A DNA stretch of 64,000 bases from Schmidtea polychroa (Eukaryota): positions 95,396,397 to 95,460,396 of the forward strand of contig CM097887.1 of NCBI GenBank assembly GCA_044892525.1. The letters are read 5' to 3'. The translations under genes were made by a program, and so were the position numbers. Of this stretch, positions 1-55,177 are shown one piece after another (the stretch's first letter is position 1; the number at the start of each line of letters is the position of its first letter). The notes beneath the pieces are model-generated. The model did no database searches. It worked only from the letters and a program-made list of their open reading frames with translations, and was not told the DNA's origin.

Positions 1-373
1 AGTCAGAATGAGGATGTTTAAGCACAGATGTGTTTTGAGATTATTTTGACTCAATAGTTATTGTCAATCGACCGAATAGTCCTTGGCTCTGATATTGTTT
101 TGTCATCAGACTCGTGTTCTGGAATATGCATTTCGATTATTGGTTCGTGTTTATGTCATCATTAGTTTTCTTTCAAAATTAGAGCAAGAATAATAACGAC
201 ACTCATCAGCAACCTAATATCTCATGAGCACTATCTAAAATAAACTTTTGCAAAGTGCATAACCCTGTTAACTATATGAAATATATTTATACAAATAATT
301 ATATATTAAAATCCATCTCAGGGTGAGGAACATCTAAATTATTAAATATATACAATAGAAATACAAGTATACA

Positions 374-1339
374 TCAATATTTGCTGATGCTATTGCTTGC
401 AGGCTTTAGTGAACTATTTACAAAATTCGAGAACTGATCTTTATCAATGTCTTCCAAAGTCTGAGTATTGTGATAATTCCACCGCCTGGCAGAATGTCTG
501 ATATTACTAATCGCACATTCTTTCAATAGAAATTTTAGCTCTTTATTATTCATACTTACTTTAGAGATTATTTCAGAAGTTTTCAAAGGAAAGGACCCTA
601 AAGCTCCAATATTACAAGTGTCAAGGTCGACTTTAAAGTCAGGGTTGACAGCCTGTATTGCATTATTTATAGAGTCATATTTCCTCAAATTATGTTTATC
701 AACTTGTTTAAAGTTAGTGACAGAGTCGCTCGGAAATTTCATATAAACTAAAATGATTGTTTTTTTGGACAAGTCAGTGATCATTAAATCCATTCGTTCT
801 CTTGGGTTTGGAACAAATAAACACATGTTATCTACGACGATAATAAGATGAGCTTTGATCTTCAGACGATATGAAATAAGTTTAAGACAATTTTCATGCC
901 TCTCAGAACTAAGAGTTTTTCGTACCTTACACGACTGAAGTACGTGTGACATTGTCTCATCTTCAGTGTGACATCGACGACAGAGTCTTTTTTCATCTTT
1001 TTTGTAAAGCTTTGCATTGATTGAAAGAGTGTTTGTGCGAGCACGGTGAATGAAGTTCTAAGAAAATTCAGACAGATCACCGTGAAAAATTGCTTTATTT
1101 ATTAGAGGTGAAAGTTTGATTGCTGATGCAATGATGTTGGAAGTGCTACCGTTCTCTCATTTTGTAAGGTAAGAGTCACAAAGTGCTATGTGCAAGACCT
1201 TAGACGTTGTTTGACGATGATCAGATTTCAAGATACATGTGCCACGCATTGCCGTTGTTATGTAGAGCGATGGCTCATTGTTTGTGATGATGAATGATAT
1301 GTTGATCTTGTGCGTTCTTTCGAAAAATGCAACTGCACT
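374..1339 (-). pseudogene. 3' fragment of an RLE-type (R2/NeSL/R5/Utopia-like) non-LTR retrotransposon ORF; representative copy, present in every unit
   Basis: Extending the 192-aa ORF upstream in the same frame gives SAVAFFERTHKINISF...YLTK*ENG...GDLSEFS*NFIHRARTNTL...CRRCHTEDETMSHVLQSC...RHENCLKLI...RERMDLMITD...ILVYMKFP...KYDSI...IGALGSFP. This is a C-X2-C-X8-H-X4-C zinc knuckle followed by a degenerate PD-(D/E)xK RLE domain and the GALG motif. There is no RT domain, and there are two in-frame stops (1157-1159, 1058-1060). Confidence 0.9.
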
Positions 1340-1361
1340 CCCTAACCCCTAACCTTAACCC
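1340..1361 (-). repeat. Telomere-like (TTAGGG-type) motif, one per unit
   Basis: Plus strand CCCTAACCCCTAACCTTAACCC, i.e. GGGTTAAGGTTAGGGGTTAGGG on minus, directly at the 5' truncation point of the LINE fragment. Confidence 0.8.
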
Positions 1362-1558
1362 AAATTTTGTGAATAATAATATCAATTATTATTTAATGCT
1401 TGTTTAATGGTTTTTTATCAATAGGTGAGAAAATACCATGAACCTTTATGTAAAAATCATTAACCGATTTTTATGAAAATTTCAATTTATAGCAAATAAA
1501 GTATACTGATTCGATCTGTATTAAAAATAACTGTTAAAAATTATTTTTTGAAATTATT

Positions 1559-1648
1559 AAAAAAAAATCGTCCATACTTGGATTTGAACCTCATACAAAA
1601 CGTCAAAATCAAAAATCTAAGAGTGAACAAACCACTTAACCACGTCAG
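1559..1648 (-). ncRNA. Degenerate tRNA-like / SINE-head Pol III cassette, one per unit; not a functional tRNA
   Basis: Minus strand has an A-box-like TGGTTAAGTGG (1642-1632), a B-box GGTTCAAATCC (1590-1580) 41 nt later, then T8-T9 (1567-1559). Acceptor and T stems do not pair well and an internal T5 run is present. Confidence 0.5.
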
Positions 1649-4600
1649 TAACTTTTATTAATAATAATAATAAATTTGACTTGTATTTGCATATGGAATA
1701 TCATGCCATTCGGATAAAATACAGCAACAAAAGAGTCAGAATGAGGATGTTTAAGCACAGATGTGTTTTGAGATTATTTTGACTCAATAGTTATTGTCAA
1801 TCGACCGAATAGTCCTTGGCTCTGATATTGTTTTGTCATCAGACTCGTGTTCTGGAATATGCATTTCGATTATTGGTTCGTGTTTATGTCATCATTAGTT
1901 TTCTTTCAAAATTAGAGCAAGAATAATAACGACACTCATCAGCAACCTAATATCTCATGAGCACTATCTAAAATAAACTTTTGCAAAGTGCATAACCCTG
2001 TTAACTATATGAAATATATTTATACAAATAATTATATATTAAAATCCATCTCAGGGTGAGGAACATCTAAATTATTAAATATATACAATAGAAATACAAG
2101 TATACATCAATATTTGCTGATGCTATTGCTTGCAGGCTTTAGTGAACTATTTACAAAATTCGAGAACTGATCTTTATCAATGTCTTCCAAAGTCTGAGTA
2201 TTGTGATAATTCCACCGCCTGGCAGAATGTCTGATATTACTAATCGCACATTCTTTCAATAGAAATTTTAGCTCTTTATTATTCATACTTACTTTAGAGA
2301 TTATTTCAGAAGTTTTCAAAGGAAAGGACCCTAAAGCTCCAATATTACAAGTGTCAAGGTCGACTTTAAAGTCAGGGTTGACAGCCTGTATTGCATTATT
2401 TATAGAGTCATATTTCCTCAAATTATGTTTATCAACTTGTTTAAAGTTAGTGACAGAGTCGCTCGGAAATTTCATATAAACTAAAATGATTGTTTTTTTG
2501 GACAAGTCAGTGATCATTAAATCCATTCGTTCTCTTGGGTTTGGAACAAATAAACACATGTTATCTACGACGATAATAAGATGAGCTTTGATCTTCAGAC
2601 GATATGAAATAAGTTTAAGACAATTTTCATGCCTCTCAGAACTAAGAGTTTTTCGTACCTTACACGACTGAAGTACGTGTGACATTGTCTCATCTTCAGT
2701 GTGACATCGACGACAGAGTCTTTTTTCATCTTTTTTGTAAAGCTTTGCATTGATTGAAAGAGTGTTTGTGCGAGCACGGTGAATGAAGTTCTAAGAAAAT
2801 TCAGACAGATCACCGTGAAAAATTGCTTTATTTATTAGAGGTGAAAGTTTGATTGCTGATGCAATGATGTTGGAAGTGCTACCGTTCTCTCATTTTGTAA
2901 GGTAAGAGTCACAAAGTGCTATGTGCAAGACCTTAGACGTTGTTTGACGATGATCAGATTTCAAGATACATGTGCCACGCATTGCCGTTGTTATGTAGAG
3001 CGATGGCTCATTGTTTGTGATGATGAATGATATGTTGATCTTGTGCGTTCTTTCGAAAAATGCAACTGCACTCCCTAACCCCTAACCTTAACCCAAATTT
3101 TGTGAATAATAATATCAATTATTATTTAATGTTTGTTTAATGGTTTTTTATCAATAGGTGAGAAAATACCATGAACCTTTATGTAAAAATCATTAACCGA
3201 TTTTTATGAAAATTTCAATTTATAGCAAATAAAGTATACTGATTCGATCTGTATTAAAAATAACTGTTAAAAATTATTTTTTGAAATTATTAAAAAAAAT
3301 CGTCCATACTTGGATTTGAACCTCATACAAAACGTCAAAATCAAAAATCTAAGAGTGAACAAACCACTTAACCACGTCAGTAACTTTTATTAATAATAAT
3401 AATAAATTTGACTTGTATTTGCATATGGAATATCATGCCATTCGGATAAAATACAGCAACAAAAGAGTCAGAATGAGGATGTTTAAGCACAGATGTGTTT
3501 TGAGATTATTTTGACTCAATAGTTATTGTCAATCGACCGAATAGTCCTTGGCTCTGATATTGTTTTGTCATCAGACTCGTGTTCTGGAATATGCATTTCG
3601 ATTATTGGTTCGTGTTTATGTCATCATTAGTTTTCTTTCAAAATTAGAGCAAGAATAATAACGACACTCATCAGCAACCTAATATCTCATGAGCACTATC
3701 TAAAATAAACTTTTGCAAAGTGCATAACCCTGTTAACTATATGAAATATATTTATACAAATAATTATATATTAAAATCCATCTCAGGGTGAGGAACATCT
3801 AAATTATTAAATATATACAATAGAAATACAAGTATACATCAATATTTGCTGATGCTATTGCTTGCAGGCTTTAGTGAACTATTTACAAAATTCGAGAACT
3901 GATCTTTATCAATGTCTTCCAAAGTCTGAGTATTGTGATAATTCCACCGCCTGGCAGAATGTCTGATATTACTAATCGCACATTCTTTCAATAGAAATTT
4001 TAGCTCTTTATTATTCATACTTACTTTAGAGATTATTTCAGAAGTTTTCAAAGGAAAGGACCCTAAAGCTCCAATATTACAAGTGTCAAGGTCGACTTTA
4101 AAGTCAGGGTTGACAGCCTGTATTGCATTATTTATAGAGTCATATTTCCTCAAATTATGTTTATCAACTTGTTTAAAGTTAGTGACAGAGTCGCTCGGAA
4201 ATTTCATATAAACTAAAATGATTGTTTTTTTGGACAAGTCAGTGATCATTAAATCCATTCGTTCTCTTGGGTTTGGAACAAATAAACACATGTTATCTAC
4301 GACGATAATAAGATGAGCTTTGATCTTCAGACGATATGAAATAAGTTTAAGACAATTTTCATGCCTCTCAGAACTAAGAGTTTTTCGTACCTTACACGAC
4401 TGAAGTACGTGTGACATTGTCTCATCTTCAGTGTGACATCGACGACAGAGTCTTTTTTCATCTTTTTTGTAAAGCTTTGCATTGATTGAAAGAGTGTTTG
4501 TGCGAGCACGGTGAATGAAGTTCTAAGAAAATTCAGACAGATCACCGTGAAAAATTGCTTTATTTATTAGAGGTGAAAGTTTGATTGCTGATGCAATGAT

Positions 4601-7600
4601 GTTGGAAGTGCTACCGTTCTCTCATTTTGTAAGGTAAGAGTCACAAAGTGCTATGTGCAAGACCTTAGACGTTGTTTGACGATGATCAGATTTCAAGATA
4701 CATGTGCCACGCATTGCCGTTGTTATGTAGAGCGATGGCTCATTGTTTGTGATGATGAATGATATGTTGATCTTGTGCGTTCTTTCGAAAAATGCAACTG
4801 CACTCCCTAACCCCTAACCTTAACCCAAATTTTGTGAATAATAATATCAATTATTATTTAATGCTTGTTTAATGGTTTTTTATCAATAGGTGAGAAAATA
4901 CCATGAACCTTTATGTAAAAATCATTAACCGATTTTTATGAAAATTTCAATTTATAGCAAATAAAGTATACTGATTCGATCTGTATTAAAAATAACTGTT
5001 AAAAATTATTTTTTGAAATTATTAAAAAAAAATCGTCCATACTTGGATTTGAACCTCATACAAAACGTCAAAATCAAAAATCTAAGAGTGAACAAACCAC
5101 TTAACCACGTCAGTAACTTTTATTAATAATAATAATAAATTTGACTTGTATTTGCATATGGAATATCATGCCATTCGGATAAAATACAGCAACAAAAGAG
5201 TCAGAATGAGGATGTTTAAGCACAGATGTGTTTTGAGATTATTTTGACTCAATAGTTATTGTCAATCGACCGAATAGTCCTTGGCTCTGATATTGTTTTG
5301 TCATCAGACTCGTGTTCTGGAATATGCATTTCGATTATTGGTTCGTGTTTATGTCATCATTAGTTTTCTTTCAAAATTAGAGCAAGAATAATAACGACAC
5401 TCATCAGCAACCTAATATCTCATGAGCACTATCTAAAATAAACTTTTGCAAAGTGCATAACCCTGTTAACTATATGAAATATATTTATACAAATAATTAT
5501 ATATTAAAATCCATCTCAGGGTGAGGAACATCTAAATTATTAAATATATACAATAGAAATACAAGTATACATCAATATTTGCTGATGCTATTGCTTGCAG
5601 GCTTTAGTGAACTATTTACAAAATTCGAGAACTGATCTTTATCAATGTCTTCCAAAGTCTGAGTATTGTGATAATTCCACCGCCTGGCAGAATGTCTGAT
5701 ATTACTAATCGCACATTCTTTCAGTAGAAATTTTAGCTCTTTATTATTCATACTTACTTTAGAGATTATTTCAGAAGTTTTCAAAGGAAAGGACCCTAAA
5801 GCTCCAATATTACAAGTGTCAAGGTCGACTTTAAAGTCAGGGTTGACAGCCTGTATTGCATTATTTATAGAGTCATATTTCCTCAAATTATGTTTATCAA
5901 CTTGTTTAAAGTTAGTGACAGAGTCGCTCGGAAATTTCATATAAACTAAAATGATTGTTTTTTTGGACAAGTCAGTGATCATTAAATCCATTCGTTCTCT
6001 TGGGTTTGGAACAAATAAACACATGTTATCTACGACGATAATAAGATGAGCTTTGATCTTCAGACGATATGAAATAAGTTTAAGACAATTTTCATGCCTC
6101 TCAGAACTAAGAGTTTTTCGTACCTTACACGACTGAAGTACGTGTGACATTGTCTCATCTTCAGTGTGACATCGACGACAGAGTCTTTTTTCATCTTTTT
6201 TGTAAAGCTTTGCATTGATTGAAAGAGTGTTTGTGCGAGCACGGTGAATGAAGTTCTAAGAAAATTCAGACAGATCACCGTGAAAAATTGCTTTATTTAT
6301 TAGAGGTGAAAGTTTGATTGCTGATGCAATGATGTTGGAAGTGCTACCGTTCTCTCATTTTGTAAGGTAAGAGTCACAAAGTGCTATGTGCAAGACCTTA
6401 GACGTTGTTTGACGATGATCAGATTTCAAGATACATGTGCCACGCATTGCCGTTGTTATGTAGAGCGATGGCTCATTGTTTGTGATGATGAATGATATGT
6501 TGATCTTGTGCGTTCTTTCGAAAAATGCAACTGCACTCCCTAACCCCTAACCTTAACCCAAATTTTCTGAATAATAATATCAATTATTATTTAATGCTTG
6601 TTTAATGGTTTTTTATCAATAGGTGAGAAAATACCATGAACCTTTATGTAAAAATCATTAACCGATTTTTATGAAAATTTCAATTTATAGCAAATAAAGT
6701 ATACTGATTCGATCTGTATTAAAAATAACTGTTAAAAATTATTTTTTGAAATTAATAAAAAAAAATCGTCCATACTTGGATTTGAACCTCATACAAAACG
6801 TCAAAATCAAAAATCTAAGAGTGAACAAACCACTTAACCACGTCAGTAACTTTTATTAATAATAATAATAAATTTGACTTGTATTTGCATATGGAATATC
6901 ATGCCATTCGGATAAAATACAGCAACAAAAGAGTCAGAATGAGGATGTTTAAGCACAGATGTGTTTTGAGATTATTTTGACTCAATAGTTATTGTCAATC
7001 GACCGAATAGTCCTTGGCTCTGATATTGTTTTGTCATCAGACTCGTGTTCTGGAATATGCATTTCGATTATTGGTTCGTGTTTATGTCATCATTAGTTTT
7101 CTTTCAAAATTAGAGCAAGAATAATAACGACACTCATCAGCAACCTAATATCTCATGAGCACTATCTAAAATAAACTTTTGCAAAGTGCATAACCCTGTT
7201 AACTATATGAAATATATTTATACAAATAATTATATATTAAAATCCATCTCAGGGTGAGGAACATCTAAATTATTAAATATATACAATAGAAATACAAGTA
7301 TACATCAATATTTGCTGATGCTATTGCTTGCAGGCTTTAGTGAACTATTTACAAAATTCGAGAACTGATCTTTATCAATGTCTTCCAAAGTCTGAGTATT
7401 GTGATAATTCCACCGCCTGGCAGAATGTCTGATATTACTAATCGCACATTCTTTCAATAGAAATTTTAGCTCTTTATTATTCATACTTACTTTAGAGATT
7501 ATTTCAGAAGTTTTCAAAGGAAAGGACCCTAAAGCTCCAATATTACAAGTGTCAAGGTCGACTTTAAAGTCAGGGTTGACAGCCTGTATTGCATTATTTA

Positions 7601-16600: not shown

Positions 16601-19600
16601 TAAAGCTTTGCATTGATTGAAAGAGTGTTTGTGCGAGCACGGTGAATGAAGTTCTAAGAAAATTCAGACAGATCACCGTGAAAAATTGCTTTATTTATTA
16701 GAGGTGAAAGTTTGATTGCTGATGCAATGATGTTGGAAGTGCTACCGTTCTCTCATTTTGTAAGGTAAGAGTCACAAAGTGCTATGTGCAAGACCTTAGA
16801 CGTTGTTTGACGATGATCAGATTTCAAGATACATGTGCCACGCATTGCCGTTGTTATGTAGAGCGATGGCTCATTGTTTATGATGATGAATGATATGTTG
16901 ATCTTGTGCGTTCTTTCGAAAAATGCAACTGCACTCCCTAACCCCTAACCTTAACCCAAATTTTGTGAATAATAATATCAATTATTATTTAATGCTTGTT
17001 TAATGGTTTTTTATCAATAGGTGAGAAAATACCATGAACCTTTATGTAAAAATCATTAACCGATTTTTATGAAAATTTCAATTTATAGCAAATAAAGTAT
17101 ACTGATTCGATCTGTATTAAAAATAACTGTTAAAAATTATTTTTTGAAATTATTAAAAAAAAATCGTCCATACTTGGATTTGAACCTCATACAAAACGTC
17201 AAAATCAAAAATCTAAGAGTGAACAAACCACTTAACCACGTCAGTAACTTTTATTAATAATAATAATAAATTTGACTTGTATTTGCATATGGAATATCAT
17301 GCCATTCGGATAAAATACAGCAACAAAAGAGTCAGAATGAGGATGTTTAAGCACAGATGTGTTTTGAGATTATTTTGACTCAATAGTTATTGTCAATCGA
17401 CCGAATAGTCCTTGGCTCTGATATTGTTTTGTCATCAGACTCGTGTTCTGGAATATGCATTTCGATTATTGGTTCGTGTTTATGTCATCATTAGTTTTCT
17501 TTCAAAATTAGAGCAAGAATAATAACGACACTCATCAGCAACCTAATATCTCATGAGCACTATCTAAAATAAACTTTTGCAAAGTGCATAACCCTGTTAA
17601 CTATATGAAATATATTTATACAAATAATTATATATTAAAATCCATCTCAGGGTGAGGAACATCTAAATTATTAAATATATACAATAGAAATACAAGTATA
17701 CATCAATATTTGCTGATGCTATTGCTTGCAGGCTTTAGTGAACTATTTAGAAAATTCGAGAACTGATCTTTATCAATGTCTTCCAAAGTCTGAGTATTGT
17801 GATAATTCCACCGCCTGGCAGAATGTCTGATATTACTAATCGCACATTCTTTCAATAGAAATTTTAGCTCTTTATTATTCATACTTACTTTAGAGATTAT
17901 TTCAGAAGTTTTCAAAGGAAAGGACCCTAAAGCTCCAATATTACAAGTGTCAAGGTCGACTTTAAAGTCAGGGTTGACAGCCTGTATTGCATTATTTATA
18001 GAGTCATATTTCCTCAAATTATGTTTATCAACTTGTTTAAAGTTAGTGACAGAGTCGCTCGGAAATTTCATATAAACTAAAATGATTGTTTTTTTGGACA
18101 AGTCAGTGATCATTAAATCCATTCGTTCTCTTGGGTTTGGAACAAATAAACACATGTTATCTACGACGATAATAAGATGAGCTTTGATCTTCAGACGATA
18201 TGAAATAAGTTTAAGACAATTTTCATGCCTCTCAGAACTAAGAGTTTTTCGTACCTTACACGACTGAAGTACGTGTGACATTGTCTCATCTTCAGTGTGA
18301 CATCGACGACAGAGTCTTTTTTCATCTTTTTTGTAAAGCTTTGCATTGATTGAAAGAGTGTTTGTGCGAGCACGGTGAATGAAGTTCTAAGAAAATTCAG
18401 ACAGATCACCGTGAAAAATTGCTTTATTTATTAGAGGTGAAAGTTTGATTGCTGATGCAATGATGTTGGAAGTGCTACCGTTCTCTCATTTTGTAAGGTA
18501 AGAGTCACAAAGTGCTATGTGCAAGACCTTAGACGTTGTTTGACGATGATCAGATTTCAAGATACATGTGCCACGCATTGCCGTTGTTATGTAGAGCGAT
18601 GGCTCATTGTTTGTGATGATGAATGATATGTTGATCTTGTGCGTTCTTTCGAAAAATGCAACTGCACTCCCTAACCCCTAACCTTAACCCAAATTTTGTG
18701 AATAATAATATCAATTATTATTTAATGCTTGTTTAATGGTTTTTTATCAATAGGTGAGAAAATACCATGAACCTTTATGTAAAAATCATTAACCGATTTT
18801 TATGAAAATTTCAATTTATAGCAAATAAAGTATACTGATTCGATCTGTATTAAAAATAACTGTTAAAAATTATTTTTTGAAATTATTAAAAAAAAATCGT
18901 CCATACTTGGATTTGAACCTCATACAAAACGTCAAAATCAAAAATCTAAGAGTGAACAAACCACTTAACCACGTCAGTAACTTTTATTAATAATAATAAT
19001 AAATTTGACTTGTATTTGCATATGGAATATCATGCCATTCGGATAAAATACAGCAACAAAAGAGTCAGAATGAGGATGTTTAAGCACAGATGTGTTTTGA
19101 GATTATTTTGACTCAATAGTTATTGTCAATCGACCGAATAGTCCTTGGCTCTGATATTGTTTTGTCATCAGACTCGTGTTCTGGAATATGCATTTCGATT
19201 ATTGGTTCGTGTTTATGTCATCATTAGTTTTCTTTCAAAATTAGAGCAAGAATAATAACGACACTCATCAGCAACCTAATATCTCATGAGCACTATCTAA
19301 AATAAACTTTTGCAAAGTGCATAACCCTGTTAACTATATGAAATATATTTATACAAATAATTATATATTAAAATCCATCTCAGGGTGAGGAACATCTAAA
19401 TTATTAAATATATACAATAGAAATACAAGTATACATCAATATTTGCTGATGCTATTGCTTGCAGGCTTTAGTGAACTATTTACAAAATTCGAGAACTGAT
19501 CTTTATCAATGTCTTCCAAAGTCTGAGTATTGTGATAATTCCACCGCCTGGCAGAATGTCTGATATTACTAATCGCACATTCTTTCAATAGAAATTTTAG

Positions 19601-22600
19601 CTCTTTATTATTCATACTTACTTTAGAGATTATTTCAGAAGTTTTCAAAGGAAAGGACCCTAAAGCTCCAATATTACAAGTGTCAAGGTCGACTTTAAAG
19701 TCAGGGTTGACAGCCTGTATTGCATTATTTATAGAGTCATATTTCCTCAAATTATGTTTATCAACTTGTTTAAAGTTAGTGACAGAGTCGCTCGGAAATT
19801 TCATATAAACTAAAATGATTGTTTTTTTGGACAAGTCAGTGATCATTAAATCCATTCGTTCTCTTGGGTTTGGAACAAATAAACACATGTTATCTACGAC
19901 GATAATAAGATGAGCTTTGATCTTCAGACGACATGGAATTAGTTTAAGACAATTTTCATGCCTCTCAGAACTAAAAGTTTTCTGTACCTTACACGACTGA
20001 AGTAAGATGTGACATTGTCTCATCTTCAGTGTGACATCGACGACAGAGTCTTTTTTCATCTTTTTTGTAAAGCTTTGCATTGATTGAAAGAGTGTTTTTG
20101 CGAGCACGGTGAATGAAGTTCTAAGAAAATTCAGACAGATCACCGTGAAAAATTGCTTTATTTATTAGAGGTGAAAGTTTGATTGCTGATGCAATGATGT
20201 TGGAAGTGCTACCGTTCTCTCATTTTGTAAGGTAAGAGTCACAAAGTGCTATGTGCAAGACCTTAGACGTTGTTTGACGATGATCAGATTTCAAGATACA
20301 TGTGCCACGCATTTCCGTTGTTATGTAGAGCGATGGCTCATGGTTTGTGATGATGAATGATATGTTGATCTTGTGCGTTCTTTCGAAAAATGCAACTGCA
20401 CTCCCTAACCCCTAACCTTAACCCAAATATTCTGAATAATAATATCAATTATTATTTAATGCTTGTTTAATGGTTTTTATCAATAGGTGAGAAAATACCA
20501 TGAACCTTTATGTAAAAATCATTAACCGATTTTTATGAAAATTTCAATTTATAGCAAATAAAGTATACTGATTCGATCTGTATTAAAAATAACTGTTAAA
20601 AATTATTTTTTGAAATTATTAAAAAAAAATCGTCCATACTTGGATTTGAACCTCATACAAAACGTCAAAATCAAAAATCTAAGAGTGAACAAACCACTTA
20701 ACCACGTCAGTAACTTTTATTAATAATAATAATAAATTTGACTTGTATTTGCATATGGAATATCATGCCATTCGGATAAAATACAGCAACAAAAGAGTCA
20801 GAATGAGGATGTTTAAGCACAGATGTGTTTTGAGATTATTTTGACTCAATAGTTATTGTCAATCGACCGAATAGTCCTTGGCTCTGATATTGTTTTGTCA
20901 TCAGACTCGTGTTCTGGAATATGCATTTCGATTATTGGTTCGTGTTTATGTCATCATTAGTTTTCTTTCAAAATTAGAGCAAGAATATTAACGACACTCA
21001 TCAGCAACCTAATATCTCATGAGCACTATCTAAAATAAACTTTTGCAAAGTGCATAAACCTGTTAACTATATGAAATATATTTATACAAATAATTATATA
21101 TTAAAATCCATCTCAGGGTGAGGAACATCTAAATTATTAAATATATACAATAGAAATACAAGTATACATCAATATTTGCTGATGCTATTGCTTGCAGGCT
21201 TTAGTGAACTATTTAGAAAATTCGAGAACTGATCTTTATCAATGTCTTCCAAAGTCTGAGTATTGTGATAATTCCACCGCCTGGCAGAATGTCTGATATT
21301 ACTAATCGCACATTCTTTCAATAGAAATTTTAGCTCTTTATTATTCATACTTACTTTAGAGATTATTTCAGAAGTTTTCAAAGGAAAGGACCCTAAAGCT
21401 CCAATATTACAAGTGTCAAGGTCGACTTTAAAGTCAGGGTTGACAGCCTGTATTGCATTATTTATAGAGTCATATTTCCTCAAATTATGTTTATCAACTT
21501 GTTTAAAGTTAGTGACAGAGTCGCTCGGAAATTTCATATAAACTAAAATGATTGTTTTTTTGGACAAGTCAGTGATCATTAAATCCATTCGTTCTCTTGG
21601 GTTTGGAACAAATAAACACATGTTATCTACGACGATAATAAGATGAGCTTTGATCTTCAGACGAAATGGAATTAGTTTAAGACAATTTTCATGCCTCTCA
21701 GAACTAAGAGTTTTTCGTACCTTACACGACTGAAGTACGTGTGACATTGTCTCATCTTCAGTGTGACATCGACGACAGAGTCTTTTTTCATCTTTTTTGT
21801 AAAGCTTTGCATTGATTGAAAGAGTGTTTGTGCGAGCACGGTGAATGAAGTTCTAAGAAAATTCAGACAGATCACCGTGAAAAATTGCTTTATTTATTAG
21901 AGGTGAAAGTTTGATTGCTGATGCAATGATGTTGGAAGTGCTACCGTTCTCTCATTTTGTAAGGTAAGAGTCACAAAGTGCTATGTGCAAGACCTTAGAC
22001 GTTGTTTGACGATGATCAGATTTCAAGATACATGTGCCACGCATTTCCGTTGTTATGTAGAGCGATGGCTCATGGTTTGTGATGATGAATGATATGTTGA
22101 TCTTGTGCGTTCTTTCGAAAAATGCAACTGCACTCCCTAACCCCTAACCTTAACCCAAATATTCTGAATAATAATATCAATTATTATTTAATGCTTGTTT
22201 AATGGTTTTTATCAATAGGTGAGAAAATACCATGAACCTTTATGTAAAAATCATTAACCGATTTTTATGAAAATTTCAATTTATAGCAAATAAAGTATAC
22301 TGATTCGATCTGTATTAAAAATAACTGTTAAAAATTATTTTTTGAAATTATTAAAAAAAAATCGTCCATACTTGGATTTGAACCTCATACAAAACGTCAA
22401 AATCAAAAATCTAAGAGTGAACAAACCACTTAACCACGTCAGTAACTTTTATTAATAATAATAATAAATTTGACTTGTATTTGCATATGGAATATCATGC
22501 CATTCGGATAAAATACAGCAACAAAAGAGTCAGAATGAGGATGTTTAAGCACAGATGTGTTTTGAGATTATTTTGACTCAATAGTTATTGTCAATCGACC

Positions 22601-25600: not shown

Positions 25601-26550
25601 CTAACCCCTAACCTTAACCCAAATATTCTGAATAATAATATCAATTATTATTTAATGCTTGTTTAATGGTTTTTATCAATAGGTGAGAAAATACCATGAA
25701 CCTTTATGTAAAAATCATTAACCGATTTTTATGAAAATTTCAATTCATAGCAAATAAAGTATACTGATTCGATCTGTATTAAAAATAACTGTTAAAAATT
25801 ATTTTTTGAAATTATTAAAAAAAAATCGTCCATACTTGGATTTGAACCTCATACAAAACGTCAAAATCAAAAATCTAAGAGTGAACAAACCACTTAACCA
25901 CGTCAGTAACTTTTATTAATAATAATAATAAATTTGACTTCTATTTGCATATGGAATATCATGCCATTCGGATAAAATACAGCAACAAAAGAGTCAGAAT
26001 GAGGATGTTTAAGCACAGATATGTTTTGAGATTATTTTGACTCAATAGTTATTGTCAATCGACCGAATAGTCCTTGGCTCTGATATTGTTTTGTCATCAG
26101 ACTCGTGTTCTGGAATATGCATTTCGATTATTGGTTCGTGTTTATGTCATCATTAGTTTTCTTTCAAAATTAGAGCAAGAATAATAACGACACTCATCAG
26201 CAACCTAATATCTCATGAGCACTATCTAAAATAAACTTTTGCAAAGTGCATAACCCTGTTAACTATATGAAATATATTTATACAAATAATTATATATTAA
26301 AATCCATCTCAGGGTGAGGAACATCTAAATTATTAAATATATACAATAGAAATACAAGTATACATCAATATTTGCTGATGCTATTGCTTGCAGGCTTTAG
26401 TGAACTATTTACAAAATTCGAGAACTGATCTTTATCAATGTCTTCCAAAGTCTGAGTATTGTGATAATTCCACCGCCTGGCAGAATGTCTGATATTACTA
26501 ATCGCACATTCTTTCAATAGAAATTTTAGCTCTTTATTATTCATACTTAC

Positions 26551-32500: not shown

Positions 32501-33871
32501 GTTCTTTCGAAAAATGCAACTGCACTCCCTAACCCCTAACCTTAACCCAAATATTCTGAATAATAATATCAATTATTATTTAATGCTTGTTTAATGGTTT
32601 TTATCAATAGGTGAGAAAATACCATGAACCTTTATGTAAAAATCATTAACCGATTTTTATGAAAATTTCAATTTATAGCAAATAAAGTATACTGATTCGA
32701 TCTGTATTAAAAATAACTGTTAAAAATTATTTTTTGAAATTATTAAAAAAAAATCGTCCATACTTGGATTTGAACCTCATACAAAACGTCAAAATCAAAA
32801 ATCTAAGAGTGAACAAACCACTTAACCACGTCAGTAACTTTTATTAATAATAATAATAAATTTGACTTGTATTTGCATATGGAATATCATGCCATTCGGA
32901 TAAAATACAGCAACAAAAGAGTCAGAATGAGGATGTTTAAGCACAGATGTGTTTTGAGATTATTTTGACTCAATAGTTATTGTCAATCGACCGAATAGTC
33001 CTTGGCTCTGATATTGTTTTGTCATCAGACTCGTGTTCTGGAATATGCATTTCGATTATTGGTTCGTGTTTATGTCATCATTAGTTTTCTTTCAAAATTA
33101 GAGCAAGAATAATAACGACACTCATCAGCAACCTAATATCTCATGAGCACTATCTAAAATAAACTTTTGCAAAGTGCATAACCCTGTTAACTATATGAAA
33201 TATATTTATACAAATAATTATATATTAAAATCCATCTCAGGGTGAGGAACATCTAAATTATTAAATATATACAATAGAAATACAAGTATACATCAATATT
33301 TGCTGATGCTATTGCTTGCAGGCTTTAGTGAACTATTTACAAAATTCGAGAACTGATCTTTATCAATGTCTTCCAAAGTCTGAGTATTGTGATAATTCCA
33401 CCGCCTGGCAGAATGTCTGATATTACTAATCGCACATTCTTTCAATAGAAATTTTAGCTCTTTATTATTCATACTTACTTAAGAGATTATTTCAGAAGTT
33501 TTCAAAGGAAAGGACCCTAAAGCTCCAATATTACAAGTGTCAAGGTCGACTTTAAAGTCAGGGTTGACAGCCTGTATTGCATTATTTATAGAGTCATATT
33601 TCCTCAAATTATGTTTATCAACTTGTTTAAAGTTAGTGACAGAGTCGCTCGGAAATTTCATATAAACTAAAATGATTGTTTTTTTGGACAAGTCAGTGAT
33701 CATTAAATCCATTCGTTCTCTTGGGTTTGGAACAAATAAACACATGTTATCTACGACGATAATAAGATGAGCTTTGATCTTCAGACGAAATGGAATTAGT
33801 TTAAGACAATTTTCATGCCTCTCAGAACTAAGAGTTTTCCGTACCTTACACGACTGAAGTACGTGTGACAT
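26551..33871 (-). pseudogene. Five consecutive units (16-20) whose RLE ORF is truncated to 130 aa
   Basis: Plus-strand CTTTAGAG to CTTAAGAG changes an AAA (Lys) codon to TAA. The ORF track shows 130-aa versions at 26551, 28283, 30015, 31747 and 33479. Confidence 0.9.
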
Positions 33872-39800: not shown

Positions 39801-42800
39801 TTGCATATGGAATATCATGCCATTCGGATAAAATACAGCAACAAAAGAGTCAGAATGAGGATGTTTAAGCACAGATGTGTTTTGAGATTATTTTGACTCA
39901 ATAGTTATTGTCAATCGACCGAATAGTCCTTGGCTCTGATATTGTTTTGTCATCAGACTCGTGTTCTGGAATATGCATTTCGATTATTGGTTCGTGTTTA
40001 TGTCATCATTAGTTTTCTTTCAAAATTAGAGCAAGAATAATAACGACACTCATCAGCAACCTAATATCTCATGAGCACTATCTAAAATAAACTTTTGCAA
40101 AGTGCATAACCCTGTTAACTATATGAAATATATTTATACAAATAATTATATATTAAAATCCATCTCAGGGTGAGGAACATCTAAATTATTAAATATATAC
40201 AATAGAAATACAAGTATACATCAATATTTGCTGATGCTATTGCTTGCAGGCTTTAGTGAACTATTTACAAAATTCGAGAACTGATCTTTATCAATGTCTT
40301 CCAAAGTCTGAGTATTGTGATAATTCCACCGCCTGGCAGAATGTCTGATATTACTAATCGCACATTCTTTCAATAGAAATTTTAGCTCTTTATTATTCAT
40401 ACTTACTTTAGAGATTATTTCAGAAGTTTTCAAAGGAAAGGACCCTAAAGCTCCAATATTACAAGTGTCAAGGTCGACTTTAAAGTCAGGGTTGACAGCC
40501 TGTATTGCATTATTTATAGAGTCATATTTCCTCAAATTATGTTTATCAACTTGTTTAAAGTTAGTGACAGAGTCGCTCGGAAATTTCATATAAACTAAAA
40601 TGATTGTTTTTTTGGACAAGTCAGTGATCATTAAATCCATTCGTTCTCTTGGGTTTGGAACAAATAAACACATGTTATCTACGACGATAATAAGATGAGC
40701 TTTGATCTTCAGACGAAATGGAATTAGTTTAAGACAATTTTCATGCCTCTCAGAACTAAGAGTTTTCCGTACCTTACACGACTGAAGTACGTGTGACATT
40801 GTCTCATCTTCAGTGTGACATCGACGACAGAGTCTTTTTTCATCTTTTTTGTAAAGCTTTGCATTGATTGAAAGAGTGTTTGTGCGAGCACGGTGAATGA
40901 AGTTCTAAGAAAATTAAGACAGATCACCGTGAAAAATTGCTTTATTTATTAGAGGTGAAAGTTTGATTGCTGATGCAATGATGTTGGAAGTGCTACCGTT
41001 CTCTCATTTTGTAAGGTAAGAGTCACAAAGTGCTATGTGCAAGACCTTAGACGTTGTTTGACGATGATCAGATTTCAAGATACATGTGCCACGCATTGCC
41101 GTTGTTATGTAGAGCGATGGCTCATGGTTTGTGATGATGAATGATATGTTGATCTTGTGCGTTCTTTCGAAAAATGCAACTGCACTCCCTAACCCCTAAC
41201 CTTAACCCAAATATTCTGAATAATAATATCAATTATTATTTAATGCTTGTTTAATGGTTTTTTATCAATAGGTGAGAAAATACCATGAACCTTTATGTAA
41301 AAATCATTAACCGATTTTTATGAAAATTTCAATTTATAGCAAATAAAGTATACTGATTCGATCTGTATTAAAAATAACTGTTAAAAATTATTTTTTGAAA
41401 TTATTAAAAAAAATCGTCCATATTTGGATTTGAACCTCATACAAAACGTCAAAATCAAAAATCTAAGAGTGAACAAACCACTTAACCACGTCAGTAACTT
41501 TTATTAATAATAATAATAAATTTGACTTGTATTTGCATATGGAATATCATGCCATTCGGATAAAATACAGCAACAAAAGAGTCAGAATGAGGATGTTTAA
41601 GCACAGATGTGTTTTGAGATTATTTTGACTCAATAGTTATTGTCAATCGACCGAATAGTCCTTGGCTCTGATATTGTTTTGTCATCAGACTCGTGTTCTG
41701 GAATATGCATTTCGATTATTGGTTCGTGTTTATGTCATCATTAGTTTTCTTTCAAAATTAGAGCAAGAATAATAACGACACTCATCAGCAACCTAATATC
41801 TCATGAGCACTATCTAAAATAAACTTTTGCAAAGTGCATAACCCTGTTAACTATATGAAATATATTTATACAAATAATTATATATTAAAATCCATCTCAG
41901 GGTGAGGAACATCTAAATTATTAAATATATACAATAGAAATACAAGTATACATCAATATTTGCTGATGCTATTGCTTGCAGGCTTTAGTGAACTATTTAG
42001 AAAATTCGAGAACTGATCTTTATCAATGTCTTCCAAAGTCTGAGTATTGTGATAATTCCACCGCCTGGCAGAATGTCTGATATTACTAATCGCACATTCT
42101 TTCAATAGAAATTTTAGCTCTTTATTATTCATACTTACTTTAGAGATTATTTCAGAAGTTTTCAAAGGAAAGGACCCTAAAGCTCCAATATTACAAGTGT
42201 CAAGGTCGACTTTAAAGTCAGGGTTGACAGCCTGTATTGCATTATTTATAGAGTCATATTTCCTCAAATTATGTTTATCAACTTGTTTAAAGTTAGTGAC
42301 AGAGTCGCTCGGAAATTTCATATAAACTAAAATGATTGTTTTTTTGGACAAGTCAGTGATCATTAAATCCATTCGTTCTCTTGGGTTTGGAACAAATAAA
42401 CACATGTTATCTACGACGATAATAAGATGAGCTTTGATCTTCAGACGAAATGGAATTAGTTTAAGACAATTTTCATGCCTCTCAGAACTAAGAGTTTTCC
42501 GTACCTTACACGACTGAAGTACGTGTGACATTGTCTCATCTTCAGTGTGACATCGACGACAGAGTCTTTTTTCATCTTTTTTGTAAAGCTTTGCATTGAT
42601 TGAAAGAGTGTTTGTGCGAGCACGGTGAATGAAGTTCTAAGAAAATTAAGACAGATCACCGTGAAAAATTGCTTTATTTATTAGAGGTGAAAGTTTGATT
42701 GCTGATGCAATGATGTTGGAAGTGCTACCGTTCTCTCATTTTGTAAGGTAAGAGTCACAAAGTGCTATGTGCAAGACCTTAGACGTTGTTTGACGATGAT

Positions 42801-45800
42801 CAGATTTCAAGATACATGTGCCACGCATTGCCGTTGTTATGTAGAGCGATGGCTCATGGTTTGTGATGATGAATGATATGTTGATCTTGTGCGTTCTTTC
42901 GAAAAATGCAACTGCACTCCCTAACCCCTAACCTTAACCCAAATATTCTGAATAATAATATCAATTATTATTTAATGCTTGTTTAATGGTTTTTTATCAA
43001 TAGGTGAGAAAATACCATGAACCTTTATGTAAAAATCATTAACCGATTTTTATGAAAATTTCAATTTATAGCAAATAAAGTATACTGATTCGATCTGTAT
43101 TAAAAATAACTGTTAAAAATTATTTTTTGAAATTATTAAAAAAAATCGTCCATATTTGGATTTGAACCTCATACAAAACGTCAAAATCAAAAATCTAAGA
43201 GTGAACAAACCACTTAACCACGTCAGTAACTTTTATTAATAATAATAATAAATTTGACTTGTATTTGCATATGGAATATCATGCCATTCGGATAAAATAC
43301 AGCAACAAAAGAGTCAGAATGAGGATGTTTAAGCACAGATGTGTTTTGAGATTATTTTGACTCAATAGTTATTGTCAATCGACCGAATAGTCCTTGGCTC
43401 TGATATTGTTTTGTCATCAGACTCGTGTTCTGGAATATGCATTTCGATTATTGGTTCGTGTTTATGTCATCATTAGTTTTCTTTCAAAATTAGAGCAAGA
43501 ATAATAACGACACTCATCAGCAACCTAATATCTCATGAGCACTATCTAAAATAAACTTTTGCAAAGTGCATAACCCTGTTAACTATATGAAATATATTTA
43601 TACAAATAATTATATATTAAAATCCATCTCAGGGTGAGGAACATCTAAATTATTAAATATATACAATAGAAATACAAGTATACATCAATATTTGCTGATG
43701 CTATTGCTTGCAGGCTTTAGTGAACTATTTAGAAAATTCGAGAACTGATCTTTATCAATGTCTTCCAAAGTCTGAGTATTGTGATAATTCCACCGCCTGG
43801 CAGAATGTCTGATATTACTAATCGCACATTCTTTCAATAGAAATTTTAGCTCTTTATTATTCATACTTACTTTAGAGATTATTTCAGAAGTTTTCAAAGG
43901 AAAGGACCCTAAAGCTCCAATATTACAAGTGTCAAGGTCGACTTTAAAGTCAGGGTTGACAGCCTGTATTGCATTATTTATAGAGTCATATTTCCTCAAA
44001 TTATGTTTATCAACTTGTTTAAAGTTAGTGACAGAGTCGCTCGGAAATTTCATATAAACTAAAATGATTGTTTTTTTGGACAAGTCAGTGATCATTAAAT
44101 CCATTCGTTCTCTTGGGTTTGGAACAAATAAACACATGTTATCTACGACGATAATAAGATGAGCTTTGATCTTCAGACGAAATGGAATTAGTTTAAGACA
44201 ATTTTCATGCCTCTCAGAACTAAGAGTTTTCCGTACCTTACACGACTGAAGTACGTGTGACATTGTCTCATCTTCAGTGTGACATCGACGACAGAGTCTT
44301 TTTTCATCTTTTTTGTAAAGCTTTGCATTGATTGAAAGAGTGTTTGTGCGAGCACGGTGAATGAAGTTCTAAGAAAATTAAGACAGATCACCGTGAAAAA
44401 TTGCTTTATTTATTAGAGGTGAAAGTTTGATTGCTGATGCAATGATGTTGGAAGTGCTACCGTTCTCTCATTTTGTAAGGTAAGAGTCACAAAGTGCTAT
44501 GTGCAAGACCTTAGACGTTGTTTGACGATGATCAGATTTCAAGATACATGTGCCACGCATTGCCGTTGTTATGTAGAGCGATGGCTCATGGTTTGTGATG
44601 ATGAATGATATGTTGATCTTGTGCGTTCTTTCGAAAAATGCAACTGCACTCCCTAACCCCTAACCTTAACCCAAATATTCTGAATAATAATATCAATTAT
44701 TATTTAATGCTTGTTTAATGGTTTTTTATCAATAGGTGAGAAAATACCATGAACCTTTATGTAAAAATCATTAACCGATTTTTATGAAAATTTCAATTTA
44801 TAGCAAATAAAGTATACTGATTCGATCTGTATTAAAAATAACTGTTAAAAATTATTTTTTGAAATTATTAAAAAAAATCGTCCATATTTGGATTTGAACC
44901 TCATACAAAACGTCAAAATCAAAAATCTAAGAGTGAACAAACCACTTAACCACGTCAGTAACTTTTATTAATAATAATAATAAATTTGACTTGTATTTGC
45001 ATATGGAATATCATGCCATTCGGATAAAATACAGCAACAAAAGAGTCAGAATGAGGATGTTTAAGCACAGATGTGTTTTGAGATTATTTTGACTCAATAG
45101 TTATTGTCAATCGACCGAATAGTCCTTGGCTCTGATATTGTTTTGTCATCAGACTCGTGTTCTGGAATATGCATTTCGATTATTGGTTCGTGTTTATGTC
45201 ATCATTAGTTTTCTTTCAAAATTAGAGCAAGAATAATAACGACACTCATCAGCAACCTAATATCTCATGAGCACTATCTAAAATAAACTTTTGCAAAGTG
45301 CATAACCCTGTTAACTATATGAAATATATTTATACAAATAATTATATATTAAAATCCATCTCAGGGTGAGGAACATCTAAATTATTAAATATATACAATA
45401 GAAATACAAGTATACATCAATATTTGCTGATGCTATTGCTTGCAGGCTTTAGTGAACTATTTAGAAAATTCGAGAACTGATCTTTATCAATGTCTTCCAA
45501 AGTCTGAGTATTGTGATAATTCCACCGCCTGGCAGAATGTCTGATATTACTAATCGCACATTCTTTCAATAGAAATTTTAGCTCTTTATTATTCATACTT
45601 ACTTTAGAGATTATTTCAGAAGTTTTCAAAGGAAAGGACCCTAAAGCTCCAATATTACAAGTGTCAAGGTCGACTTTAAAGTCAGGGTTGACAGCCTGTA
45701 TTGCATTATTTATAGAGTCATATTTCCTCAAATTATGTTTATCAACTTGTTTAAAGTTAGTGACAGAGTCGCTCGGAAATTTCATATAAACTAAAATGAT

Positions 45801-48800
45801 TGTTTTTTTGGACAAGTCAGTGATCATTAAATCCATTCGTTCTCTTGGGTTTGGAACAAATAAACACATGTTATCTACGACGATAATAAGATGAGCTTTG
45901 ATCTTCAGACGAAATGGAATTAGTTTAAGACAATTTTCATGCCTCTCAGAACTAAGAGTTTTCCGTACCTTACACGACTGAAGTACGTGTGACATTGTCT
46001 CATCTTCAGTGTGACATCGACGACAGAGTCTTTTTTCATCTTTTTTGTAAAGCTTTGCATTGATTGAAAGAGTGTTTGTGCGAGCACGGTGAATGAAGTT
46101 CTAAGAAAATTAAGACAGATCACCGTGAAAAATTGCTTTATTTATTAGAGGTGAAAGTTTGATTGCTGATGCAATGATGTTGGAAGTGCTACCGTTCTCT
46201 CATTTTGTAAGGTAAGAGTCACAAAGTGCTATGTGCAAGACCTTAGACGTTGTTTGACGATGATCAGATTTCAAGATACATGTGCCACGCATTTCCGTTG
46301 TTATGTAGAGCGATGGCTCATGGTTTGTGATGATGAATGATATGTTGATCTTGTGCGTTCTTTCGAAAAATGCAACTGCACTCCCTAACCCCTAACCTTA
46401 ACCCAAATATTCTGAATAATAATATCAATTATTATTTAATGCTTGTTTAATGGTTTTTATCAATAGGTGAGAAAATACCATGAACCTTTATGTAAAAATC
46501 ATTAACCGATTTTTATGAAAATTTCAATTCATAGCAAATAAAGTATACTGATTTTATCTGTATTAAAAATAACTGTTAAAAATTATTTTTTGAAATTATT
46601 AAAAAAAAATCGTCCATACTTGGATTTGAACCTCATACAAAACGTCAAAATCAAAAATCTAAGAGTGAACAAACCACTTAACCACGTCAGTAACTTTTAT
46701 TAATAATAATAATAAATTTGACTTCTATTTGCATATGGAATATCATGCCATTCGGATAAAATACAGCAACAAAAGAGTCAGAATGAGGATGTTTAAGCAC
46801 AGATATGTTTTGAGATTATTTTGACTCAATAGTTATTGTCAATCGACCGAATAGTCCTTGGCTCTGATATTGTTTTGTCATCAGACTCGTGTTCTGGAAT
46901 ATGCATTTCGATTATTGGTTCGTGTTTATGTCATCATTAGTTTTCTTTCAAAATTAGAGCAAGAATAATAACGACACTCATCAGCAACCTAATATCTCAT
47001 GAGCACTATCTAAAATAAACTTTTGCAAAGTGCATAACCCTCTTAACTATATGAAATATATTTATACAAATAATTATATATTAAAATCCATCTCAGGGTG
47101 AGGAACATCTAAATTATTAAATATATACAATAGAAATACAAGTATACATCAATATTTGCTGATGCTATTGCTTGCAGGCTTTAGTGAACTATTTAGAAAA
47201 TTCGAGAACTGATCTTTATCAATGTCTTCCAAAGTCTGAGTATTGTGATAATTCCACCGCCTGGCAGAATGTCTGATATTACTAATCGCACATTCTTTCA
47301 ATAGAAATTTTAGCTCTTTATTATTCATACTTACTTTAGAGATTATTTCAGAAGTTTTCAAAGGAAAGGACCCTAAAGCTCCAATATTACAAGTGTCAAG
47401 GTCGACTTTAAAGTCAGGGTTGACAGCCTGTATTGCATTATTTATAGAGTCATATTTCCTCAAATTATGTTTATCAACTTGTTTAAAGTTAGTGACAGAG
47501 TCGCTCGGAAATTTCATATAAACTAAAATGATTGTTTTTTTGGACAAGTCAGTGATCATTAAATCCATTCGTTCTCTTGGGTTTGGAACAAATAAACACA
47601 TGTTATCTACGACGATAATAAGATGAGCTTTGATCTTCAGACGAAATGGAATTAGTTTAAGACAATTTTCATGCCTCTCAGAACTAAGAGTTTTCCGTAC
47701 CTTACACGACTGAAGTACGTGTGACATTGTCTCATCTTCAGTGTGACATCGACGACAGAGTCTTTTTTCATCTTTTTTGTAAAGCTTTGCATTGATTGAA
47801 AGAGTGTTTGTGCGAGCACGGTGAATGAAGTTCTAAGAAAATTCAGACAGATCACCGTGAAAAATTGCTTTATTTATTAGAGGTGAAAGTTTGATTGCTG
47901 ATGCAATGATGTTGGAAGTGCTACCGTTCTCTCATTTTGTAAGGTAAGAGTCACAAAGTGCTATGTGCAAGACCTTAGACGTTGTTTGACGATGATCAGA
48001 TTTCAAGATACATGTGCCACGCATTTCCGTTGTTATGTAGAGCGATGGCTCATGGTTTGTGATGATGAATGATATGTTGATCTTGTGCGTTCTTTCGAAA
48101 AATGCAACTGCACTCCCTAACCCCTAACCTTAACCCAAATATTCTGAATAATAATATCAATTATTATTTAATGCTTGTTTAATGGTTTTTTATCAATAGG
48201 TGAGAAAATACCATGAACCTTTATGTAAAAATCATTAACCGATTTTTATGAAAATTTCAATTCATAGCAAAAAAAGTATACTGATTCGATCTGTATTAAA
48301 AATAACTGTTAAAAATTATTTTTTGAAATTATTAAAAAAAATCGTCCATACTTGGATTTGAACCTCATACAAAACGTCAAAATCAAAAATCTAAGAGTGA
48401 ACAAACCACTTAACCACGTCAGTAACTTTTATTAATAATAATAATAAATTTGACTTGTATTTGCATATGGAATATCATGCCATTCGGATAAAATACAGCA
48501 ACAAAAGAGTCAGAATGAGGATGTTTAAGCACAGATGTGTTTTGAGATTATTTTGACTCAATAGTTATTGTCAATCGACCGAATAGTCCTTGGCTCTGAT
48601 ATTGTTTTGTCATCAGACTCGTGTTCTGGAATATGCATTTCGATTATTGGTTCGTGTTTATGTCATCATTAGTTTTCTTTCAAAATTAGAGCAAGAATAA
48701 TAACGACACTCATCAGCAACCTAATATCTCATGAGCACTATCTAAAATAAACTTTATCAAAGTGCATAAACCTGGTAACTATATGAAATATATTTATACA

Positions 48801-49496
48801 AATAATTATATATTAAAATCCATCTCAGGGTGAGGAACATCTAAATTATTAAATATATACAATAGAAATACAAGTATACATCAATATTTGCTGATGCTAT
48901 TGCTTGCAGGCTTTAGTAAACTATTTACAAAATTTGAGAACTGATCTTTATCAATGTCTTCCAAAGTCTGAGTATTGTGATAATTCCACCGCCTGGCAGA
49001 ATGTCTGATATTACTAATCGCACATTCTTTCAATAGAAATTTTAGCTCTTTATTATTCATACTTACTTTAGAGATTATTTCAGTTGTTTTCAAAGGAAAG
49101 GACCCTAAAGCTCCAATATTACAAGTGTCAAGGTCGACTTTAAAGTCAGGGTTGACAGCCTGTATTGCATTATTTATACAGTCATATTTCCTCAAATTAT
49201 GTTTATCAACTTGTTTAAAGTTAGTGACAGAGTCGCTCGGAAATTTCATATAAACTAAAATGATTGTTTTTTTGGACAAGTCAGTGATCATTAAATCCAT
49301 TCGTTCTCTTGGGTTTGGAACAAATAAACACATGTTATCTACGACGATAATAAGATGAGCTTTGATCTTCAGACGATATGAAATAAGTTTAAGACAATTT
49401 TCATGCCTCTCAGAACTAAGAGTTTTTCGTACCTTACACGACTGAAGTACGTGTGACATTGTCTCATCTTCAGTGTGACATCGACGACAGAGTCTT

Positions 49497-49737: not shown

Positions 49738-49750
49738 TATCTTTATCGTT

Positions 49751-49814
49751 TTGGCAAATCACCAGTTTGGCAAGCAGCCAGTTTGGCAAGCTGCCTGAAT
49801 TGGTAAATCGCTGT
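49751..49814 (+). promoter_or_regulatory. Four degenerate 16-17 bp direct repeats resembling NFI/CTF sites (TTGGC-N5-GCCAA) upstream of pPolB
   Basis: TTGGCAAATCACCAG (49751), TTGGCAAGCAGCCAG (49767), TTGGCAAGCTGCCTG (49783), TTGGTAAATCGCTGT (49800). The repeats are seen directly; the factor assignment is inference. Confidence 0.4.
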
Positions 49815-55176: not shown

Positions 55177-55177
55177 T

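Follow-up and report, generated by a model that had tools for sequence, protein, structure and literature searches.

A planarian macrosatellite that joins a dead LINE tail to its insertion target suggests that a single insertion can seed a satellite

How does a retrotransposon fragment without a reverse transcriptase (RT) come to stand dozens of times in tandem, each time joined to the same piece of foreign sequence? The question is raised by a macrosatellite in Schmidtea polychroa, which fills the first 49.5 kb of a 64,000-nucleotide stretch of assembly GCA_044892525.1 (contig CM097887.1, here C3, positions 95,396,397 to 95,460,396, forward strand; hereafter the window) and repeats with a period of 1,732-1,733 bp in a k-mer scan. 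Three parts make up each unit: a 1.43-kb dead tail of a long interspersed element (LINE), 19 nt of TTAGGG-like filler at the junction, and a target sequence of 285 bp. With moderate confidence, we propose that the array goes back to one truncated insertion, which would have struck the A box of a foldback element and duplicated ~285 bp of target; the two target copies would then have served as substrates for expansion in the manner of long terminal repeats (LTRs).

The tandem array is real. Positions 1-49496 of the window hold 28 complete units and a partial 29th that stops at 49496; pairwise, units differ by a mean of 9.3 alignment columns (maximum 17), and 19 of the 28 are distinct. The array extends 28.3 kb past the left window edge, and over its whole length of 77.8 kb (C3:95368122-95445892) comprises 44 complete and 2 partial units, with 29 of the 44 distinct and variants that are nested and position-dependent; unit copy numbers, for this array and for a sister array described below, are counts from the assembly. 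Of 21 sequencing runs listed, 8 contain part of the stretch, 4 of these at half its words or more and all from one study, with no RNA run listed; these runs do not enter the evidence. These figures for the array agree with an earlier description made from the letters alone (the sequence-only reading), which had claimed a macrosatellite of at least 49 kb with 28 or more near-identical 1.73-kb units; its minus-strand order of the modules is likewise confirmed. A junction sequence specific to this array has 47 matches in the genome, every one of them at this array. Tandem Repeats Finder gave no call for the array because its longest period is 500.

The LINE part of each unit (1.43 kb, minus strand) corresponds to the last 1,438 bp of a 7,991-bp LINE in the same genome, at 87% identity. 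A genome search for a full-length parent and its target, which the sequence-only reading had proposed, recovered both in this assembly, and its description of a dead, 5'-truncated tail of a LINE with a restriction-like endonuclease (RLE) was borne out. The tail carries CCHC and RH motifs, and its homologues have RT and Ulp1 domains; the unit keeps only the C-terminal 321 codons of open reading frame (ORF) 2, without the RT. Two stop codons and an Asp-to-Tyr change are present together in 43 of the 47 translated junctions, the other 4 being partial or frameshifted, and the Tyr sits at the position aligned with the second catalytic Asp, where changes of this kind abolish cleavage according to work on R2 (PMC4838377). 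Active RLE retrotransposons are recognized by an intact ORF with an RT and catalytic PD-(D/E) residues, and the unit lacks these. Codon changes private to the satellite comprise 21 synonymous and 40 non-synonymous changes and 2 stops, compared with 29:24 between two parents, which fits decay, although some may predate insertion. The truncation point is identical in every unit inspected.

The parent encodes an ORF1 of 900-970 aa and an ORF2 of 1,551 aa, and copies with an intact 1,551-aa ORF2 exist in the genome; two copies, one from a tRNA-Gln and one from a tRNA-Ala array on another contig, share 99.86% identity across 7,993 bp. ORF2 matches RVT_1 (E 8e-26), can be aligned to solved R2 proteins over the RT and RLE, and matches Peptidase_C48, an Ulp1-like cysteine protease, at 23.7 bits (cut-off 20.7), a match also present in close homologues. 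Judged by these domains, and by 3' ends compared by eye, the parent appears to be a LIN25_SM-like element of the NeSL R5/LIN type: it combines RT, CCHC and RLE, places the Ulp1 protease upstream of the RT and has multicopy RNA genes as specific targets. No named R5/LIN protein is among the 120 homologues listed. Two further observations concern its ORFs. ORF1 and ORF2 are in frame with a single TGA between them in all three copies considered (L025:4744-4746, L021 and L028), a candidate for readthrough, and a 960-aa ORF1 (L025:1864-4743) has only a sub-threshold match to Vmethyltransf (E 4.6e-4, 19.8 bits against 27).

Where the parent inserts was read from its 3' end, which has 85 matches in the genome at up to 3 mismatches, 70 of them exact. 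A (C/G/A)(A/G)TGG motif directly follows 65 of the 70 exact ends; the remaining 5 join a tRNA look-alike, with Polinton-like polymerase matches near 2 of these 5. At the fetched loci, where tRNA isoacceptors were identified, exact ends lie in tandem arrays of tRNA-Leu(TAA), -Gln(TTG), -Ala(AGC) and -Leu(TAG). Of the inexact copies, one with 2 mismatches is located in tRNA-Arg(ACG) and one with 1 mismatch is flanked by non-tRNA sequence. Four of the eight 2- and 3-mismatch matches were excluded as not fetched or not parent ends, and the matches of this class at C1:120.95, C3:103.32 and C4:62.18 have no parent body. The junction falls after gene base 5 in tRNA-Leu, -Gln and -Arg but in the D arm of tRNA-Ala, so the motif outweighs position, and the A-box junction of the satellite has the same register as the parent in tRNA-Leu, -Gln and -Arg genes. 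Parent copies within one tRNA array have a common 5' junction and so may represent one event. In the A boxes of RNA polymerase III (Pol III) units, the junction made by the parent 3' end immediately precedes a short (C/G)(A/G)TGG motif.

Telomere-targeting retrotransposons of the SART/TRAS type have telomeric repeats at the 3' junction; a telomere-targeting parent was rejected since no 3' junction read joins TTAGGG. At locus L150 (C2:162.14 Mb), two internally deleted parent copies 3,035 bp apart are joined to tRNA-Leu, possibly another small satellite derived from this family, and the genome has long single-isotype tandem tRNA arrays. An inverted pair, L119/L120, proved to be an inverted duplication and was rejected as the two ends of one element.

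A and B boxes and an oligo-T run follow one another in Pol III order in the 285-bp cassette. The sequence-only reading had called it tRNA-like, which holds for the two boxes and fails for a tRNA: neither the cassette nor a ~360-bp satellite of the same cassette (C3:78.68-78.83 Mb) yields a tRNA with ARAGORN, Rfam or folding. For the cassette, Rfam gives no tRNA match even at E<=10, and the fold has z=0.42 vs. -3.20 for a real tRNA-Gln. Calls made by ARAGORN at lowered thresholds were inconsistent and fell on both strands, and were set aside. That reading had also counted three unrelated modules, with an AT spacer apart from the cassette; the LINE tail stands as a module, whereas cassette and spacer are a single 285-bp piece of one donor element.

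The donor is a gene-less foldback element with Polinton-type ends. A 24-mer over the cassette B box has 2,087 matches (control, 1), and the cassette is present in 20 of 20 dispersed loci picked by cassette motifs, 9 of which have a common terminus 760-1,410 bp past the B box. This terminus has 170 matches (84 forward, 86 reverse), often as inverted pairs; donor elements show 6-bp target duplications at 8 of 8 end pairs, a 2-kb inverted arm and AG...CT ends. Neither polB nor integrase nor capsid was found in the donor, the one element read end to end having microsatellite frames only. A short interspersed element was rejected as the cassette's origin, since the shared sequence continues to inverted-repeat ends with 6-bp duplications. 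The sequence-only reading had named multicopy RNA genes or simple repeats as the usual targets of such RLE elements; in the present case the target is an A/B-box unit of the foldback and neither a tRNA nor another gene for a host RNA.

A tree of 33 rows unites the array cassettes (99/98) and places them with dispersed foldback copies (96/85), apart from the 360-bp satellite. Divergence follows the same division, at 11-16% from dispersed copies (nearest 11.4%) and 15-18% from 360-bp units, and the 360-bp satellite is therefore disfavored as the founding target. The LINE part is 12.5-13.3% diverged from its nearest donor and the cassette 11.4% from its own, about equal values. Side observations here include higher-order structure in the 360-bp satellite (L071-L077, L096, L097), in which three insertions of ~5.2 kb occupy a single unit position and LTR-element-like frames are present in the one that was examined; a fragment of a different RLE LINE (68% to the parent) joined to a foldback cassette at L132:1978-2320, within ~10 bp of the array cassette's end; and the 3' end of a sister LINE family (76%) inside the microsatellite part of a foldback arm at L133:1074-1257.

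Between the cassette, which ends in target-derived GGG, and the truncated LINE lie 19 nt that are absent from both parent and donor. The telomere-like motif noted earlier in this position exceeds chance, as 20 Mb of simulated sequence yielded a single TTAGGG doublet (9e-5 per unit), but it is not a standalone module: the patch is filler at the 5' junction, not target and not a third module. TTAGGG runs are abundant in the genome, with short interstitial runs at many internal sites on several contigs. In orientation and register the patch resembles the short interstitial telomeric insertions described at repaired breaks (PMC7215372), in which a few TTAGGG units stand in register at a break exposing G residues; unlike those cases, it lies at a retrotransposon 5' junction, is an imperfect 19 nt and reflects a single event. 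Non-templated addition by an RT (PMC2718515) is an alternative source. Separately, a lone unit of the 1.2-kb type (described below) at L069 (C3:90.90 Mb) has a second cassette broken at position 176 and followed by a short TTAGGG-like patch.

Target duplications of the length proposed here have counterparts among insertions of the parent. At two non-tandem sites, both insertions into the tRNA look-alike, sequence from the 3' flank is repeated upstream of the 5' end; the repeat at C3:44.67 Mb measures 208 bp and that at C3:58.41 Mb 532 bp, the upstream copies differing from their own 3' flank by 1 and 0 mismatches and from four other loci by 4-5 and 10-13. In the 500 bp upstream of the duplication, 488 positions agree between the two loci. 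The closeness of each duplicate to its own flank, together with this upstream agreement, points to duplication in place. A tRNA-Leu array additionally holds a full-length LINE-114 bp-LINE tandem. The 5' junctions at L140 (C3:58.41 Mb) and L099 (C2:38.27 Mb) fall in or beside a neighboring A-box-like unit, as if the second cut also preferred Pol III units. R9Av of Adineta vaga, which is specific for ribosomal DNA, reportedly leaves a fixed length of 126 bp; lengths left by the parent here vary and reach 532 bp.

A second array of the same descent was found 4 Mb away. A generic LINE-cassette junction has 410 matches in the genome, all on one strand (0 forward; control, 0), and the excess over the main array is explained by a sister array of ~440 kb at C3:90.96-91.40 Mb, whose units of 1,200-1,206 bp contain the same junction. 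Sister units are present in 11 of 11 stretches sampled at 91.08-91.37 Mb and in 0 of 5 past 91.40 Mb. They have the truncation point of the main array and a 522-bp internal deletion, and diverge from it by 7.9% in the LINE part and 6.4% in the cassette. An outer Penelope-like flank and its junction are common to both arrays, and the compared sequences indicate that both descend from one locus. No dispersed copy of the chimeric unit is among the matches listed, and the count of 410 fits two arrays. The single strand of all matches and the single truncation point of every unit inspected support the earlier suggestion that LINE and target were amplified as one unit at the DNA level.

Units of the main array differ by 4.2 between neighbors, rising to 14.3 at 30 units apart and falling again to 11.0 at 40, and identical units are neighbors or lie in short blocks at most 7 units apart. 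The earlier suggestion of recombinational or rolling-circle amplification can be narrowed accordingly: the variant pattern agrees with unequal exchange and gene conversion, whereas an assembly error or a single rolling-circle burst would hardly produce it. The first amplification step lies beyond the resolution of this pattern. In unit 12 (19063-20795), private changes cluster in ~75 bp at the border of two haplotype blocks, as in a conversion tract.

We propose the following course of events. An old, 5'-truncated copy of the parent would have inserted into a Pol III-like unit of the foldback inverted repeat, at the A box of that unit. The top strand would have been cut ~285 bp downstream, duplicating the target on either side. 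The free GGG end of the top strand may have gained its 19 nt from telomerase or telomeric RNA before the complementary DNA was joined, a step on which our judgment is evenly divided. The two 285-bp direct repeats would then have behaved like LTRs, out-of-register exchange between them producing a unit of LINE tail plus one target copy. The flank shared by both arrays suggests that the locus was subsequently duplicated, with one copy giving rise to the 1,732-bp array and the other losing 522 bp and expanding to ~440 kb. By their variant pattern, both arrays look locally homogenized, presumably by unequal exchange or gene conversion. Other transposons have eroded the edges of both arrays.

Several findings weigh against parts of this account. 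Neither end of either array retains the founder's flanks, which makes the 285-bp duplication an inferred and not an observed one. A long duplication occurs at only 2 of 5 insertions into look-alikes, the other 3 having none and one of them missing target, and apparent duplications of 114, 147 and 176 bp in tRNA arrays are indistinguishable from deletions. TTAGGG is found at 0 of 9 other 5' junctions of the parent, so the patch is a one-off. Some donor copies carry tandem sub-repeats of the cassette head, array copy numbers rest on the assembly, and neutrality of the array, which is probable, is a default and not a result.

The sub-repeats bring in a different founder, one that entered a tandem run of cassettes, either in the 360-bp satellite or among foldback sub-repeats, and removed some of a repeat, so that a long duplication is not required. 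The 360-bp satellite does lie on the same contig, some foldback copies do hold tandem cassette heads, and the parent can lose target at its 5' junction; even so, we consider such a founder unlikely, because the cassette groups with dispersed copies (11-16%) and not with 360-bp units (15-18%), the observed sub-repeats span only ~125 bp of head and not 285 bp, and tested stretches of the 360-bp array have no LINE match. A 1.73-kb circle, excised between two target copies, amplified as a rolling circle and re-integrated, would be expected to have precisely such a unit and would fit 410 junctions in a single orientation, yet divergence increases with unit distance, identical units are adjacent or at most 7 apart, and one outer flank common to both arrays argues for duplication of a locus over separate circle insertions, which together make a circle improbable. 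That the assembly has inflated a few copies into an array is a very remote prospect: unit counts are indeed taken from it, but distinct sequences account for 29 of the 44 units, whose variants are nested and depend on position, relic units split by transposons stand at the edge, and the sister array is 6-8% diverged.

Selection could also have kept the arrays for a role of the kind suggested by the sequence-only reading, whether in supplying PIWI-interacting RNAs that act on the active parent family or in forming centromeric or pericentromeric chromatin. In favor of such a role are ~410 tail copies that are 87% identical to a family with intact, near-identical members, and three related arrays that a span of 17 Mb in the central part of a 145-Mb contig contains. 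Pol III terminates at oligo-T, and the run after the B box should stop it ahead of the LINE part, against the production of sense LINE RNA; silencing moreover requires antisense RNA, few 30-nt guides would be expected to match perfectly at 13% divergence, and the junction count is accounted for by a single contig, unlike a centromeric satellite on all chromosomes. We regard a function of this kind as quite improbable, and the array itself as likely junk.

Close precedents exist for much of this system. R1 encodes an APE endonuclease. The X-linked R1 array of Drosophila melanogaster (McGurk and Barbash, 10.1101/158386) is, like the arrays here, a site-specific non-LTR element placed head-to-tail with target sequence in every junction, and is described as having grown by unequal exchange to 0.5-1.3 Mb, with later deletions and insertions. 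Its units are 33 nt apart, which was explained by a double insertion (10.1101/158386). The units inspected here have truncation point and filler in common, while the 5' end varies among independent insertions of the parent, so that a single insertion with a ~285-bp repeat is enough. Among LINE-derived satellites, the common cetacean satellite, PROsat and chicken HinfI likewise have monomers that contain a LINE 3' end or ORF2 fragment (PMC9659126); the founding junctions are untraced in the account given there, whereas parent, target donor and both junctions are identifiable here. LIN25_SM (Kojima and Jurka 2015, PMC4640811) is an RLE element whose 3' end is very similar to that of the parent by eye, joins tRNA genes within ~1 base of the parent's position before the A box, and has copies in tRNA look-alikes of Polintons and one in another tRNA gene. 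It is described as specific for tRNA-Glu, and its 5' junctions are not displayed (PMC4640811); here, related copies are found in Leu-TAA, Leu-TAG, Gln, Ala and Arg arrays, have produced duplications of 208 and 532 bp and have seeded macrosatellites. Neither the long LIN duplications nor the unit itself is described in the literature searched, which excluded Repbase and most subscription papers.

With the R1 array and LIN25_SM as close precedents, the interest of this system lies chiefly in the long duplications and in how broadly Pol III units are targeted. A wider reading, which we offer tentatively and consider rather unlikely as a whole, holds that the family targets Pol III genes in general, via the 5-nt A-box motif plus Pol III chromatin or TFIIIC, and moves among tRNA isotype arrays and Polinton look-alikes; that the cut in the second strand is made independently of the first, at a distance of 100-500 bp, and that telomerase can cap the exposed end before joining; and that many insertions build their own LTR-like repeats and can become satellites without a second insertion. 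The history of this array is unusually complete: one assembly contains the parent, the donor of the target, both junctions and two descendant arrays that have evolved differently, and together they suggest that one insertion can give rise to a satellite. Should the long duplications be confirmed, they would provide a route from one LINE insertion to a satellite, as well as a natural R2-like protein whose second-strand cut is relaxed and whose Pol III target is broad, a case relevant to how 5' junctions form in target-primed reverse transcription.

Table 1 Features of the window, with one unit as example (window positions)
Feature	Position	Strand	Basis or remark
Homogeneous array, 28 full units and a partial one	1..49496	-	k-mer scan, unit alignment
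5'-truncated LINE tail (example unit)	1645..3072	-	match to last 1,438 bp of parent, ~13% diverged
LINE 3' untranslated region	1645..2106	-	reaches exact 3' end of element
ORF2 remnant, 321 codons	2107..3072	-	stops near 2890 and 2790; CCHC knuckle from ~2715
ORF2 remnant, second catalytic Asp to Tyr	near 2476	-	
19-nt TTAGGG-like filler, LINE 5' junction	3073..3091	-	
285-bp target cassette	3092..3376	-	putative target-site duplication, from foldback inverted repeat
Oligo-T after B box, Pol III terminator-like	3293..3299	-	
B-box-like motif	3312..3322	-	
A-box-like motif	3364..3374	-	2 bases past LINE 3' junction
LINE 3' junction	just before 3376	-	
Polinton-derived segment closing the homogeneous array	49497..55516	+	AGTAGT terminus in 241-bp hairpin; broken type-B DNA polymerase gene
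Relic unit	55517..56840	-	~98% identical
4.1-kb LTR-type insertion within relic unit	56841..60940		4-bp duplication at flanks
Relic unit, outermost	60941..61994	-	~96% identical
Penelope-like flank	61995..64000	+	weak GIY-YIG match

Coordinates of the example unit and of the surrounding features are collected in Table 1. The left end of the array adjoins LTR-element-like sequence (judged by eye), and the right end adjoins the Polinton-derived segment. In this segment, the terminal AGTAGT is repeated in inverted form at 49711-49737, the flanks agree at 4 of 6 bases, and the type-B polymerase gene is broken over four frames, with N-terminal zinc fingers and a 15-bp repeat in 11 copies at 51932-52095. 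The insertion at 56841-60940 has near-inverted 6-bp ends and is without a long reading frame; it is probably a non-autonomous or decayed LTR element.

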